Virus record (IMG/VR): IMGVR_UViG_3300008113_000108
Span: 57,418-121,417 of that record
Length of the DNA stretch: 64,000 nt
Direction: 5' to 3' (one strand)
Source of the DNA: a virus
This document shows, in pieces, positions 10,386 to 60,300 of the stretch. Both the position numbers and the translations under genes were made by a program. Position 1 is the stretch's first letter; every line of letters begins with the position of its first letter. The notes under the pieces are model-generated. The model saw nothing but the letters and a program-made list of their open reading frames with translations. It had not been told where the DNA came from and did not search any database.

Positions 10386-10559
10386 ATGGGAGCATTAGTA
10401 GAAGTAGTAAAGCCACTACTACTTGCAGCAATGAATAGCTGCCACACTAAAAAACTAGTATGTGAACTACTTGATCGCTATGTAAACACCACTGATAATG
10501 ATATTGATAATGTACTAGCAGCAACAGTAAGAACTGCACTTCTAAAGAATTGTAAGTGA
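10386..10559 (+). CDS. small hypothetical protein (57 aa, MGALVEVVKP...)
   Basis: GGAG RBS, TAAATA upstream, read by hand. Confidence 0.7.
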   Translation: MGALVEVVKPLLLAAMNSCHTKKLVCELLDRYVNTTDNDIDNVLAATVRTALLKNCK

Positions 10560-10708
10560 TTGAATGTTTGCTGGTAAACTGGGGAGTGAGTCTAGTATTA
10601 GCTTTGCTCCTCAGCTTCTCTGAGTACCTTGGCAAGACAAAGAGATTTAAAGAAAATAGTATAATAGATTTTAGTAAAAACACTATAAGACGTATGCTGG
10701 GGAGGTAA
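10556..10708 (+). CDS. small membrane protein (50 aa)
   Basis: GTG overlapping previous TGA; hydrophobic N-term then SEYLGKTKRFKENSI. Confidence 0.55.
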   Translation: MIECLLVNWGVSLVLALLLSFSEYLGKTKRFKENSIIDFSKNTIRRMLGR

Positions 10709-18234: not shown

Positions 18235-18582
18235 ATGAAACCTCAGAGTGCTAAGGCTAAAGGTAGGAATTTACAGAAGTGGGTTAGAGATCAACTCATA
18301 GAACAACTAGAAATACATCCTGAAGATATTGAATCTAGATCTATGGGTGCTGGTGGAGAAGATTTGATTATGGCTAGAGCAGCCAGAAGTAAATTTCCCT
18401 TTTCTATAGAATGTAAAAATGTTGAAAAGTTAAATGTCTGGGAAGCATATGAGCAAGCTAAAGCAAACTGTGGAGATTATGAACCTATTGTGGTCATGAA
18501 AAAGAATCACAAGAAACCATTGGTAGTAGTAGACGCAGAGTACTTTATTAAACTATTCGGAGAGAAAAATGGCCAAGATTGA
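18235..18582 (+). CDS. PD-(D/E)XK nuclease / Holliday-junction-resolvase-like protein
   Basis: SAKAKGR, GEDL, SIECKN motifs. Confidence 0.7.
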   Translation: MKPQSAKAKGRNLQKWVRDQLIEQLEIHPEDIESRSMGAGGEDLIMARAARSKFPFSIECKNVEKLNVWEAYEQAKANCGDYEPIVVMKKNHKKPLVVVDAEYFIKLFGEKNGQD

Positions 18583-19270
18583 TCTACATAACTTCTTCAA
18601 ACATTTTGACGAAAAGAATCCAAAGCATGTTGCTGCGGTAGCACAGTTTGAAGAAGTATTATTAAAAAAAGTCCCAGAAGAAATGGATGATGTTTCTACA
18701 TGGGTTAAAACATTTAGAAGTAAACCAGAAAAAAAGGCACTAAATATTCTGGATAATTTTCCATGGTTCCCTCAAACAGATAATTACAGAGATGCTAACC
18801 GTACTTGTAACAGTTCTAGTTGTGCTATGTGTCTTGAGTATTTTAAACCAGGCACGTTAAAAGGACCAAAAGGAGACGATGCTTATGTTCAGAAAGTCTT
18901 CTCAATCGGAGATACCACAGATCACTTGGTACAAACAAGGGTTCTTGCTTCTTATGGAATTAAGTCGAGTTTCAGCTATTCCCTTTCTTTTGCTGATCTT
19001 GATCGAGAGCTTGCCGCTGGTAGACCTGTTGTTATTGGTATTCTTCATAGGGGCACTCTATCTGCTCCCACGGGAGGACACATGGTAGTTGTGATTGGCC
19101 GCACACCTGCTGGAGATTACATCGTAAATGACCCCTACGGTAGCCTCAACGACGGCTATACTGGTCCAGTGACCAATGGTAAAGGAGCAGTCTATCGACG
19201 ATCTGATCTAGCTCGTAGATGGTGTCCAGGTGGCAAGGATGGCTGGGGTAGGGTTTTCCAGGCACCATAA
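18569..19270 (+). CDS. peptidase C39-like protein, putative endolysin
   Basis: QTDN...TCNSSSCAM (Cys), GGHMVVVIG (His), VNDPYG (Asp). Confidence 0.8.
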   Translation: MAKIDLHNFFKHFDEKNPKHVAAVAQFEEVLLKKVPEEMDDVSTWVKTFRSKPEKKALNILDNFPWFPQTDNYRDANRTCNSSSCAMCLEYFKPGTLKGPKGDDAYVQKVFSIGDTTDHLVQTRVLASYGIKSSFSYSLSFADLDRELAAGRPVVIGILHRGTLSAPTGGHMVVVIGRTPAGDYIVNDPYGSLNDGYTGPVTNGKGAVYRRSDLARRWCPGGKDGWGRVFQAP

Positions 19271-19293
19271 GTTTTATAAATATCCCAAACACC

Positions 19294-19322
19294 TTGACAA
19301 CCAAATAGAAGTGTGTTAAGAT
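19294..19322 (+). promoter_or_regulatory. sigma70-type promoter for ncRNA/tRNA-Tyr
   Basis: TTGACA-17-TAAGAT with extended TG. Confidence 0.65.
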
Positions 19323-19328
19323 TGTTTT

Positions 19329-19435
19329 AAGTCTGAATCCAGTAAACCTTTTGGCATCTCCGCCACGAGTCCTGCTGGAAATATGTTACTCGCTATGCAG
19401 ATAGCATAGAAGGAGGCATTACTGGTTTCAGGCTT
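19329..19435 (+). ncRNA. unassigned structured RNA (long stem plus four-way junction)
   Basis: AAGTCTGAATCCAGTAA pairs with TTACTGGTTTCAGGCTT; inner helices CCTT/AAGG, TGGC/GCCA, CGAGT/ACTCG, CTATGC/GCATAG. Confidence 0.65.
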
Positions 19436-19438
19436 ATC

Positions 19439-19521
19439 GGGTAGGTGTCCGAGTGGTTTAAGGAACCTGACTGTAAATCAGGCGGCTCTGTCCAACGCTG
19501 GTTCAAATCCAGCCCTGCCCA
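19439..19521 (+). tRNA. tRNA-Tyr(GTA)
   Basis: cloverleaf, CT-GTA-AA loop, long variable arm, GTTCAAATC. Confidence 0.95.
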
Positions 19522-19642
19522 TTGACAACACCAATTTATATTATAAGCGATTGAGTTGTTGTCATTTTGTGCCCAGGAGATTGCCTCTTGAAAAAGAGGT
19601 GTACCCCTTTCTCTATTGGGATGTAGAGTTCTATTCAAATTA

Positions 19643-20005
19643 ATGCGTTTTATTTCAACACTTCTTATCGCTTCAACACTTCTTGGATTTACGCCCCAAA
19701 AAGCTGAAGCAGCCAGCGGATGTTCAATGGCTTCTCATTATGGTGTCGGTGATGGATATCACGGTCAAACCACCGCTAACGGTGAAAGATACAATGCATA
19801 TGGTAAATCAGTAGCACATAAATGGCTTCCATTTGGTACTAGATTACGAGTGACAAATCAACGAAATGGAAAATCAGTTATTGTGCGAGTGAATGATAGA
19901 GGTCCATATGTCGGAGGACGAGACCTCGATCTGTCCTACGGGGCATTCTCTTCAATTGCACACCCAGGACAGGGAGTGGCGAGTGTCTGTTACTCTAGAG
20001 TTTAA
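19643..20005 (+). CDS. rlpA: RlpA-like lytic transglycosylase (DPBB domain) with signal peptide
   Basis: ASHYG...TANGE...AHKWLPFGT...VRVNDRGPY...DLS. Confidence 0.9.
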   Translation: MRFISTLLIASTLLGFTPQKAEAASGCSMASHYGVGDGYHGQTTANGERYNAYGKSVAHKWLPFGTRLRVTNQRNGKSVIVRVNDRGPYVGGRDLDLSYGAFSSIAHPGQGVASVCYSRV

Positions 20006-20831: not shown

Positions 20832-20903
20832 GGGAGTATAGCTTAATGGTTAGAGCGGGCTCCTTATAAGGGCTTAGTCTGGGTTCAACTCCCAGTATTC
20901 CCA
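20832..20903 (+). tRNA. tRNA-Ile(TAT)
   Basis: GGGAGTA/TATTCCC acceptor, CT-TAT-AA loop, GTTCAACT. Confidence 0.9.
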
Positions 20904-20926
20904 TTAGGAATCGACGGGTTCCTAAA

Positions 20927-21108
20927 GAATGTGGCAGAACAATCCTTGTGGTTACTCACGGGATAATGCAATAGGTTAGGGGTGGTGCCCGCTGTATCGT
21001 TGAGAAATCAAAGGTATAGAACTTCCGACCAAGAAGAATCTAGGTTCCTGGAAATACGGTTGTCAGTGTAACCATCCAGGTTGTGGGTATGACAGATTCC
21101 CACCATTC
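20927..21108 (+). ncRNA. manA-like RNA motif
   Basis: GAATG/CATTC closing stem, multiple hairpins, GGTGGTGCCCGCTG core, kissing TGTCA/TGACA; tRNA-adjacent as described for manA; family assignment from memory. Confidence 0.65.
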
Positions 21109-21120
21109 ACCCAAAACATT

Positions 21121-24425: not shown

Positions 24426-24431
24426 AATTTA

Positions 24432-24538
24432 GTCCTCGTCGGATTGGACATTAAATATGCCGACTGGTGCGGATGAAGAGTTTTTGACTCTGCCGAGTTT
24501 CCAGTTTTCTCGTAATCAAAACTGGTGGCGAGCCTGCA
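24432..24538 (+). ncRNA. wcaG-like RNA motif
   Basis: two UGGYG elements (CTGGTGCGG, GTGGCGAGCCTG); pseudoknot CGAG/CTCG with CCAGTTTT/AAAACTGG; family assignment from memory. Confidence 0.7.
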
Positions 24539-24584
24539 AAGGGGTTGACAACCCCAACTACTCCTGCTATAGTAGGAGTTTCAT

Positions 24585-30162: not shown

Positions 30163-30196
30163 TGATATATAATAAGTAACCTTTGGTTACTTTTTT

Positions 30197-30283
30197 GGAG
30201 GGGCAATCCGATTGGCGACGGAACCTGTCTTGAAAACAGTTGAGGTGTTAAAGCCCTTGGGGGTTCGACTCCCCCTCCCTCCG
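30197..30283 (+). tRNA. tRNA-Ser(TGA)
   Basis: GGAGGGG/TCCCTCC acceptor, CT-TGA-AA loop, long variable arm. Confidence 0.95.
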
Positions 30284-30300
30284 TTGTCCGTTATAATTTT

Positions 30301-57300: not shown

Positions 57301-60300
57301 CAATTACTAGAAGACCAACTGGAATCACTCCTTCTGCTGCATTTACAACTTCATTCATTGAAGCTGTAAATAACTTCGATAAGGAGACCAGAGTAACCTC
57401 CAACGTAAACTACCTATATCCTTCAATCAACGAAGAAGGTCCTACTTATGATGTAAGAAGAATCTGGAACCCACCACAAACAGATTCTCGTGTACTTGTA
57501 GAGCCAATTGCTGCAGGTAAGAGAGTTAAGGATCTATCCGTACCTAACGCTAAGTATTACAGAGGCGGTTCTACACCATTTGCAGATATTCCTGCAATGA
57601 CCTCTGTAACTGCAGAAGCAGTACATCGTCTTGTACAATCTCTTGATCTCAGATATGCACAGTCAACCACTGCATCAACCTCAAGAGTTGTAGTTGCTCC
57701 AGTTCTATCATGGGATAGCCGTGCTGGTGCAAATGAATATACTACTTCAGAAGTAAATATCTATGGTACTGGTTCTTTCCGTTATGGTGCAAATGGAACC
57801 AGACAAAGCATTCCTACAACTGCATCACCAAACGTATTTGGTATTGATGCAGAAGCTTCAGATAGAAGAATTCCAGTTGTAGCTGCTGGCGCTTCATTCA
57901 CTGCTCCATCTTCATCTAATTCAGATAGCATCAATAGTGCTGCACCAACAATTCCACTCTACAGACCATCCATCCTACGTGCATCTTCACACACCTGGGA
58001 ATATATCGGTTTAGGTTCTGGTAACTATTCAACTGGTTTCCCAAATCTGCAGACAAGAGTTCTCAAGAACTACGAACAGTTCATTGCACAGGGTTATGAA
58101 AACTCTGGTGGTTTCGTTGCTTCATCTGGTACAAACTCTAACGGCGACTTCTACATTGGAAACCAAGTTGTTCAGGCAGGTGGTACATCAACAGTAACTC
58201 TAAACGTACCTAAAGTACGTAAGTCTTCTGAGTCCAACTATGTTGATATCACTAACCTAGAGAACAGAATTTCTAACGCTGTTGTCAACGTAACTGCTGC
58301 AATTGGTAGAAATTCATCTTCACAGAATGCTCTAAAGGCACTATCAAACTTCTTCAACACTGCTAAGCTAAGTGTTACTGACCGTGCAACCATTCAGAGC
58401 TTGATTGTCAATGACAGACTATTCATTGCAAACACAAGAATCAACAATGGTTCAAACTTCCCAGAAGCAAACACCGAGGCATTTGGTTTCGTTAAGGCAG
58501 CAAGACCAGAGAAGACTGGTTTCATCTCAACTGATACCAATGACAGACTCTATGTTTCACCTAAGTTCCTCGATGCTTGGAGAATCAAGAGACAGCTAGT
58601 TTCAGCTTCTAACATTACTCTAGATAACAACAGAATTTATCTACAGCCACTAAGCAGAACTCTACTCGATAGTGCTTCAACTTCAACTTCAACTGGAATT
58701 ACAACTTCAACTTCAACTCTAACTGTAAAAGAATCTGCAGGTATTCCTACCTATGGTGTTCTTGATATTGACATGTCACTCAAGTATGTTGAAGTTGGTG
58801 ATTATCAAGTAGATGGAAGCAACAGAATCTATCTAAATCCAAGAATTAATGTTAACCTAAACTATACTACTATTGATTATACTTCAAATATCATCACTCT
58901 CAATGCAAACCAAAACTACATTGGAAGACAATCATATCTAGAAAACGTTCTAGGAACATCTGGATATAACTCTGTAATTAAGCATTGGTCCAGCCCAATT
59001 GATGATGGTGCAAGTGCAAGTGAGAAGGATATTAAGTATCTACGCTCAAATCTAACTCAGAACTTCAGTGTAAGTGCTGCAGGAAACCCAACTCCAGAAT
59101 CCCCAGTAAATCTATTCATCAGCACAACTGATTGGCCATCTTGGCCAGATCGTGGTGCAGTAACTCTAAGAGAATATCCAAAGAATGGTTCTTACAGATA
59201 TTCAACTTATGTTTACTACAAGGGAGCTACTGGTCAGTTAATTCTTGTCAGAAAGGTTGCAAACGCTTCTGGAAATGATACTGGACATACCTATAACGTA
59301 ACATATAATAATGGTTATGCTGGTATTCCTTCCAAGAACGTATTCTTCTCTGGTTGTACAACCACCGTATCCTTTGCTGATAGATGGGCAAGGGAAGAGC
59401 CATTCATTCCATCAGTTGAGTCAATTTCAGAAGATATCGACCTAGAATCTGCAACTCTATACACAGTTCCTGAAAAGTCAGTTGGTTATACTGGAGATAT
59501 TGATGACACCTTCATTAACAATAGCCTACCAAACCCATTCAGCTCCAAGGCTCTAGGTGTCAACCTACAGAACAGACAAGCTGTTAAGAAGTTTGCTCCA
59601 CTGACAACATTTGGTCAAGTACAAACATGGTGTGAGACTTCAGGATTCAACGTCAACGATAACGTTGAACTTCTAATGAAGCCTGGTTACTATAAACTAG
59701 ATGGTGCTTCATTCCCATGTAGAATTACAATTAATGGTACTGGTTTACAAAAGAGCAGCGTATTTGCTGGTAAAGAGCAGACTGGAACCTCACAAGGTAG
59801 AATGGGTGGTTATCTAGAAACCAGCACCAAGAGAGGAGATAGCATTTACTTCTATCGTGCCCCATCATTTGGGGATCAGTGGGGCAACAACACAGATAGA
59901 CTTTATACAACTGTAAGTGGTGGACTAACTTCTAAGGGTGGATTTGATCTTTCTAATGTTCACTTCCTAGGTCTAAATGATGCAGTAATCAAGAATGAAA
60001 TTCTCGATGAAGCATATTCAACTGATTCACTAATTTCTGAAGCAAGAAAGGCAGTTAGAAAGGCATATTACATTAAGAATACCAGCAACTTCCCAAATAC
60101 AACTACAACTGATGGAATTGCAGGAGCACTAACTTTCACTGCAAATACCACTGGTGGTCAAGGTAAAGCTACAATTAGCTACTATCTAAACAGTGATGAC
60201 ATCATGGTAGCTGCTCTAGGAGCTGCAACTGATGGTGATATCAACACTGCTGATAAGACAACTTCTCGCTACATGATTATTACCATTGAAGCGAATAAGT

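Follow-up and report, generated by a model that had tools for sequence, protein, structure and literature searches.

We found that 107 nucleotides lying between a sigma-70-like promoter and a tRNA-Tyr gene of this viral DNA specify a discrete, conserved structured RNA on the plus strand, as a first-pass annotation of the sequence had proposed. This assignment is supported by 13 distinct homologues with compensatory changes and by the clean presence or absence of 107-110 nt at one site. The element is an optional cassette, and its 3' arm is one copy of a widespread hairpin module of about 40 nt. This module had been missed by the first-pass annotation; the CTATGC/GCATAG arm and the flanking ACTCG and AAGGAG words are part of it. 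We favor, at slightly better than even confidence, an explanation in which a discrete small RNA is released by tRNA processing and the module is its protein-recognition core. Taken as a whole, the earlier observation is partly confirmed and the earlier interpretation partly supported.

The window analysed here is a 64,000-nt stretch (positions 57,418 to 121,417 of IMG/VR record IMGVR_UViG_3300008113_000108) and forms part of a 121-kb viral contig estimated to be 66% complete. It contains manA and wcaG RNAs and eleven tRNAs (Rfam 15, ARAGORN), and shares synteny with T4-like Synechococcus phages, for example S-PM2 and S-CREM1, over nrdB and neighbouring genes. The following features, in window coordinates, define the locus and the RNAs downstream of it.

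18569-19270: Peptidase_C39_2-like gene, directly upstream of the promoter and element
19275-19282, plus strand: T4-type late-promoter word TATAAATA, kept in all aligned homologues
19294-19322, plus strand: sigma-70-like promoter TTGACA-17-TAAGAT with TG before the -10 box, 10 of 12 matches
19329-19435, plus strand: whole structured RNA element, 107 nt, fold z -4.75, 13 distinct homologues
19439-19521, plus strand: tRNA-Tyr (GTA), CCA not encoded, called by ARAGORN and by Rfam (tRNA, 60.9 bits)
20904-21113: manA RNA (RF01745), 105.6 bits in Rfam, starting at the base after tRNA-Ile (20832-20903)
24430-24539: wcaG RNA (RF01761), 48.2 bits against a gathering score of 42, slightly downstream of the tRNA array

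The RNA had been placed about 7 nt after the promoter and 3 nt before tRNA-Tyr, and both placements hold: six bases intervene and the element opens at the seventh, and the three nucleotides ATC separate its end from the tRNA, putting the RNase P site of tRNA-Tyr 3 nt past the element. Every member has a 6-nt spacer, of differing sequence, between its -10 box and the opening pair of the terminal helix, and in all of them the element begins where +1 is expected. The homologues share an invariant -35 box, and each has a -10 box of variable sequence. By analogy with T4-like phages, the word at 19275-19282 is probably a late promoter. An RlpA-like DPBB lytic transglycosylase gene lies downstream of the element and tRNA-Tyr, and the element is single-copy in the 121-kb record. 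Two other observations were made in the window. A 115-aa ORF two genes upstream (18235-18582) gave a sub-threshold match to PF24608, a phage PDDEXK endonuclease (21.9 bits against a cut-off of 27). The stretch 30196-30284, called tRNA-Ser (TGA) by ARAGORN and matched best within its clan by tRNA-Sec in Rfam (49 bits, gathering score 47), is probably a tRNA-Ser with a long variable arm.

The plus strand of the element folds with a minimum free energy of -41.1 kcal/mol, against -25.0 +/- 3.4 kcal/mol for 200 shuffles (z -4.75), none of which was as good; the value for the reverse strand is -36.5 kcal/mol. An Rfam search had been suggested as a check, and no Rfam 15 family matched the element body at E<=10, where only tRNA-Tyr and two sub-threshold chance matches were returned. 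A weak sX4 alignment (22.3 bits; gathering score 70) starts at 19430 and is centred on the tRNA. Neither ARAGORN nor Rfam (RF00005, E<=10) called a tRNA within 19329-19435, in agreement with the earlier remark that this RNA lacks tRNA signatures. A small ORF of 8 codons inside the element was dismissed, its sole in-frame change being non-synonymous and further support lacking. As for a target in trans, the reverse complement of an invariant linker in the element occurs once elsewhere in the window with 1 mismatch, which is the chance level.

Homologues were collected from viral contigs by pattern scans and by searching with the upstream protein, and an 18-base scan of metagenome contigs added 8 carriers (one cut by a contig end) together with 4 chance matches. 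There are 13 distinct full-length homologues, with a mean column identity of 95%. When 19250-19560 was compared by BLAST with 50,697 phage records, 57 matched in the tRNA-Tyr part only and none covered the element; these records hold no cultured-phage carrier of the full element. A tRNA stands 2-3 nt behind the element in 11 of the 13. In the remaining two, L090 and L189, the tRNA is absent, and a late-promoter word and a PD-(D/E)XK endonuclease gene lie behind the element. This endonuclease (341-700 in L090, same position in L189; PF11645, E 2.2e-12) stands where others have tRNA-Tyr, and the replacement may be a homing-endonuclease swap. In three loci (L007 at 1276-1366, L011 and L182) the element is followed by an atypical 91-nt gene, which ARAGORN labels tRNA-Arg and which differs from the tRNA-Tyr of other members by an insertion in the D-arm region.

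Occupancy of the site was compared among 80 loci fetched via the upstream gene. R1, a covariance model of the module, detected the element in 7 of these loci and a module by itself in one. Of the 80, 63 fell outside the parsing rule and 17 with the same double promoter fit it; in these 17 the promoter is followed by the element in 7, directly by tRNA-Tyr in 8 and by tRNA-Asn in 2. In an RNA-library contig of a relative, exactly 110 nt are absent between the -10 box and the tRNA. S-PM2, which is syntenic, has a lysin gene directly after the upstream gene and no R1 match. Presence in an RNA library was observed for a 93%-alike relative, in which upstream gene, element and tRNA run continuously along a 588-nt contig from a freshwater metatranscriptome library; DNA can contaminate RNA libraries. 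The best explanation of the carrying lineage is that it consists of freshwater or estuarine T4-like cyanophages.

Alternative folds of the element were compared on the alignment of the 13 distinct homologues. The parts of the conserved fold are listed below, with element positions in brackets.

19329-19345, plus strand: 5' strand of the terminal helix (1-17), pairing with 19419-19435
19348-19369, plus strand: hairpin A (20-41), loop AUCUCC, from covariation and RNAalifold
19370-19379, plus strand: hairpin B (42-51), 3 bp and a 4-nt loop, from the RNAalifold consensus
19380-19387, plus strand: invariant linker, AAAUAUGUU region (52-59), unchanged in 13 of 13
19388-19415, plus strand: module core, consisting of A, CUC, G, a 6-bp helix with AGAUA loop, AAG and GAG, from covariance model R1
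19419-19435, plus strand: 3' strand of the terminal helix (91-107), with a U4.G104 wobble in 13 of 13

Collecting homologues for covariation, the other check suggested earlier, revealed structural conservation in the terminal helix and in the hairpin at 20-41. The covariation score was 0.101, compared with 0.061 for shuffles (0 of 500 as high) and at most 0.036 for slid controls; it rests on few events because only 13 closely related full sequences are available. Compensatory pairs in the terminal helix are 7-101 (GC 8, AU 2, GU 2), 9-99 (AU 10, GC 2) and 11-97 (CG 10, UA 1), and mismatches are tolerated at 10-12/96-98. The 17-bp basal stem described earlier survives as 16 pairs, with a U.U mismatch at 10/98. 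Within hairpin A, pair 22-39 is kept in all 13 sequences as three pair types (UG 8, GC 4, UA 1), pair 26-35 is GC in 11 and AU in 2, and 23-38 is a mismatch in 10 of the 13; when the 13 sequences are folded individually to minimum energy, 9 form the hairpin. The invariant U4.G104 would be a C.A mismatch on the opposite strand, and the wobbles U4.G104, G10.U98 and U22.G39 fix the strand as plus. The RNAalifold consensus comprises the terminal helix, hairpin A, the 3-bp hairpin B and an arm at 55-91, in which 55-59 pair with 87-91, so that the linker partly belongs to the weak stem that closes the module arm. The three pairs of the predicted hairpin B are invariant, its one change (U45 to A) falling in the loop; the closing stem of the module arm and the inner pairs of the module are likewise invariant within the 107-nt family. 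The conserved fold favored by covariation would thus be a four-way junction of terminal helix, hairpin A, hairpin B and the 3' arm.

A four-way junction had also been described by the first-pass annotation. Its topology is kept in the consensus, whereas the helices it named are replaced by others. We consider it quite improbable that this earlier junction, with its kissing loops, is the functional structure. All the complementary words it named are found in the sequence, and it is essentially the minimum-energy fold of the window sequence (-41.1 versus -39.2 kcal/mol for the consensus fold, a gap of 1.9) and that of 3 other members, so both folds may be populated. Its CCTT/AAGG helix, however, is broken at pair 22-82 in 4 of the 13 sequences, and its CGAGT/ACTCG helix at 39-63 in 5 and at 38-64 in 3, in each case uncompensated, while the rival pair 22-39 is kept throughout. 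The fold lies 10-19 kcal/mol above the minimum in L182, L184, L086, L087, L089 and L090, and 8-14 above it in three others. The proposed CTCC/GGAG contact is not supported either: GAG pairs with CUC in the conserved fold, and in short modules the words ACUCG and AAGGAG form a CUC/GAG pairing that covaries. Every loop-A variant keeps 3-4 bases of ATCT/AGAT complementarity. This persistence is weak evidence for a kissing loop because the partner loop AGAUA is invariant in the family and equally conserved in short versions that have no partner loop.

The module came to light through a partial BLAST hit in L076 and matches of a 20-base scan in L093 and L094, where the arm stands alone between tRNAs, inside a short stem of other sequence. 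Its closing stem is variable and 4-7 bp long; beyond this come a bulged A, 3 bp of helix, a G/AAR internal loop, a helix of 6 bp and a pentaloop of the form ANAYA. R1 finds its sole copy in the window at 19378-19425 (47.8 bits, E 1.2e-12); the match is partly by construction because the window row sat in the seed alignment, and its weak point is that 3 of the 5 closing-stem model pairs are non-standard in this copy. A degenerate pattern run over viral contigs gave 86 stretches, reduced to 65 distinct contexts among the loci, and a second, looser pattern gave at least 120 stretches, with 86 distinct, less-biased instances among the matches listed.

In 46 sequences, as many as 5 pair types occur in a single column of the closing stem; its covariation score is 0.373 against 0.126 in shuffles (0 of 500 as high), and its many U.G pairs fix the strand. 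Among the matches listed, the outer pair of the 3-bp helix is paired in 86 of 86 instances (CG 52, GC 28, AU 2, UA 2, GU 2) and the bulged base is A in 83 of the 86; the third internal-loop base is G with 49 of the 52 C-G pairs and A with all 28 G-C pairs. This base, number 35, follows pair 12-38 from three steps away, being G where that pair is C-G and A where it is G-C, A-U or U-A, a correlation that could reflect a tertiary contact or two clades. Several known motifs were considered and rejected. Reading AAGGAG as a Shine-Dalgarno sequence or a GGAG-nuclease site was abandoned as 36 of the 86 instances (among the matches listed) have AAAGA plus a variable base, with the partner changed accordingly. 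A K-turn was rejected as the strand facing the AAR bulge is without the required GA, and a tetraloop-receptor and a loop-E motif were likewise discounted by eye.

In cultured phages, R1 found copies in S-SZBM1, DSL-LC02 (two) and S-EIVl, with the outer pair switched from C-G to G-C or A-U; in DSL-LC03 the module was found by BLAST match only. Complete phage genomes carry 1-2 copies, and S-PM2 carries 0. The records of the four cultured phages leave the module unannotated. Rfam was also run on 10 further loci (E<=0.5) and, at gathering score, on 6 loci, and matched the module in neither set.

Placement was counted for 114 distinct module instances among the matches listed. Of these, 58 begin 3-8 nt past a tRNA 3' end, with a mode of 5, an offset indicating that the closing stem begins at or beside the first trailer base. 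The others include 12 full-length elements, 42 modules without an upstream tRNA (in 19 of which a -10-like word is no more than 70 nt away) and 2 lying too close to the end of a contig to be assigned. Ten kinds of tRNA are found upstream, and some modules are flanked on either side by a tRNA only a few bases away. No common downstream gene was found among 76 contexts; there are many small unrelated clusters, including HNH endonuclease (6), a glutaredoxin-like protein and an RlpA-like protein. The HNH gene lies 20-450 nt after the module in these 6 of the 76 contexts (L103, L099, L128, L137 and others), and in DSL-LC02 an annotated HNH gene lies upstream of the second module. A further arrangement was seen in L161, L107, L121 and about 20 similar loci, where the module is located within a larger promoter-proximal RNA-like region. 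Regions of the L161 type have a CCCC...GGGG hairpin ahead of the module and a long imperfect hairpin behind it, and match no Rfam family at gathering score.

A pattern scan of 185,579 species genomes yielded 9 stretches. Five were dismissed as stem complementarity was missing, and the 4 real ones are all on MAG contigs of at most 2.5 kb, which look viral. When R1 was run on 121 genomes of one host-related family (the family of G001), it matched only in the genome with a module-bearing MAG contig and in none of the 120 others. The module was thus seen only on viral or virus-like contigs in these searches. A reading of the module as a host decoy, or as mimicking a cellular RNA, was rejected on the grounds that the species-genome scan gave only these four short contigs.

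In the explanation that we favor, the dual promoter (late TATAAATA and early sigma-70-like) would start transcription from the first base of the 16-17-bp terminal helix, and an RNase P cut at tRNA-Tyr, 3 nt downstream, would yield an RNA of about 107-110 nt. As both of its ends are base-paired in the terminal helix, the RNA should be stable. A 3' end made by RNase P, which the first-pass annotation had put forward, would fit the 2-3-nt gap before tRNA-Tyr; as L090 and L189 have no tRNA behind the element, RNase P is not the general 3'-end maker. Short modules may be released by RNase Z together with RNase P. Bulged purines, fixed loops and freely covarying stems are typical of protein-recognised hairpins such as coat-protein operators and boxB. 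The fixed bulged A, internal loop and pentaloop of the module, carried on a freely covarying stem, point to recognition by a protein, so that the module would be the functional core, a hairpin whose sequence is specifically recognised by a protein of the phage or the host. After tRNA-punctuated processing, the module RNA would act in trans as a small, stable molecule. What speaks against this reading is that 42 of the 114 instances among the matches listed have no upstream tRNA and that the downstream genes are diverse.

Alternatively, the element may act in cis, as a promoter-proximal 5' leader of its own transcript that, for example, protects the 5' end, tunes RNase P processing of tRNA-Tyr or modifies the polymerase so that it continues into the downstream genes. 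The start of the element always falls where this one promoter should initiate, its place ahead of the PD-(D/E)XK gene makes it a positional leader in L090 and L189, and about 19 module instances among the matches listed lie within 70 nt of a -10-like word. On the other hand, eight close relatives run from the same promoter to tRNA-Tyr without the element, indicating that the tRNA does not need it; the module occurs as often behind tRNAs in mid-array, with diverse genes downstream; and no terminator or expression platform overlapping the element was found. We regard a role as cis leader as unlikely. Less likely still is a more speculative proposal, in which the module represents a new class of functional RNA in cyanophages. 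It would either process itself, as a minimal unit that sets the 3' ends of tRNAs, or work in trans as a decoy for a host RNA-metabolism or defence protein, and the 107-nt RNA would be its stabilised, promoter-driven 'high-dose' form, gained as a cassette.

Self-cleavage has been considered separately, with the module as a small ribozyme trimming the 3' trailer of the upstream tRNA, a role proposed for theta ribozymes, and the 107-nt element as an elaborated copy. The unpaired nucleotides are highly conserved, and the 58 of 114 instances (among the matches listed) that start 0-3 nt beyond the last tRNA base have the placement reported for theta ribozymes in the accessible text of PMC10879173. 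Yet the predicted structure is a simple nested hairpin with no conserved downstream pseudoknot partner among 65 contexts, no Rfam 15 ribozyme family matches it, 42 instances (among the matches listed) lack an upstream tRNA, and the window's own module sits upstream of its tRNA. This makes a ribozyme improbable in our judgment. We give the least credence, and very little of it, to a reading at the level of DNA, as a miniature inverted-repeat insertion or the footprint of homing, in which the 17-bp terminal repeats merely resemble an RNA stem. Such an element would account for the clean presence or absence at one site and for repeats that are terminal and inverted, and these tRNA regions often contain homing endonuclease genes of the HNH and PD-(D/E)XK types. 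However, inverted termini are the only MITE character present: the element is single-copy, and neither multiple copies nor a target-site duplication was found, no direct repeat being seen at its junctions. Site and orientation are the same in all members, with the same promoter ahead in 13 of 13 and a tRNA behind in 11. Wobbles are tolerated on one strand only, compensatory changes occur in both helices, and the internal module has independent RNA-type covariation with many U.G pairs.

Phage tRNA arrays are usually read only as helpers of codon usage; here, in freshwater and estuarine cyanophages, tRNA genes also frame small structured RNAs. Rfam 15 has no entry for a short hairpin that is under strong structural selection in more than 100 distinct contigs and in four cultured phages. 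S-SZBM1 and DSL-LC02 (model-confirmed) and DSL-LC03 (BLAST only) infect laboratory Synechococcus, making the motif directly testable, and the 107-nt RNA offers a natural stabilised version of the module for comparison. We rate the element and module as a new RNA family among the small RNAs embedded in phage tRNA arrays. No description of either was found in the literature; the accessible text of the S-CREM1 paper lists only Rfam-derived ncRNAs, and the supplements of PMC10690425 (10,006 viral candidate RNAs from IMG/VR), which stand apart from its main text, may list the motif.

Among known RNAs, abiF (RF03085) is similar in being a hairpin of about 37 nt between tRNAs, in the ncRNA/tRNA array of cyanophage S-CREM1, where its copy (L253 932-968, S-CREM1 10531-10567; 52.2 bits) lies between tRNA-Asn and tRNA-Gly. 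It differs in sequence and structure, and its 37-position model finds nothing in window positions 19200-19700 at E<=10. In the part of the S-CREM1 paper that is accessible, abiF motifs are reported in a variety of bacteria. Words resembling abiF were seen by eye near modules in L099 and L161, below the Rfam threshold. Theta ribozymes, which are minimal HDV-like ribozymes, are likewise compact RNAs directly at phage tRNA 3' ends (accessible text of PMC10879173), but they are known from gut Caudoviricetes, in contrast to cyanophages, and the module has neither a double pseudoknot nor an Rfam hit. With phage operator hairpins, namely coat-protein operators and boxB, the module shares a pattern, and the analogy is functional only.

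This window also contains manA and wcaG RNAs, two structured RNAs known from T4-like cyanophages, for which cis regulation or a riboswitch function has been proposed (PMC2864571). They are separate families from the present element, and no Rfam model matches 19329-19435 at E<=10. The manA copy in the window has further tRNAs behind it and no protein gene, and is thus another structured RNA framed by tRNAs; its position flush with tRNA-Ile and the T4 RNAs RNAC and RNAD are the closest precedents for the present arrangement. The ends of T4 RNAC and RNAD are made by tRNA-processing enzymes. As described in the accessible text of PMC3014915, these are two small RNAs from the T4 tRNA region, whose role is unknown. 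The present RNA resembles them in position and kind only, as a small non-tRNA RNA that would be co-transcribed with the tRNAs of a T4-type phage. It differs in lying at the promoter end of the array and in carrying a module found only in cyanophage contigs, and it bears on the old question of the role of non-tRNA small RNAs in T4-type tRNA regions.
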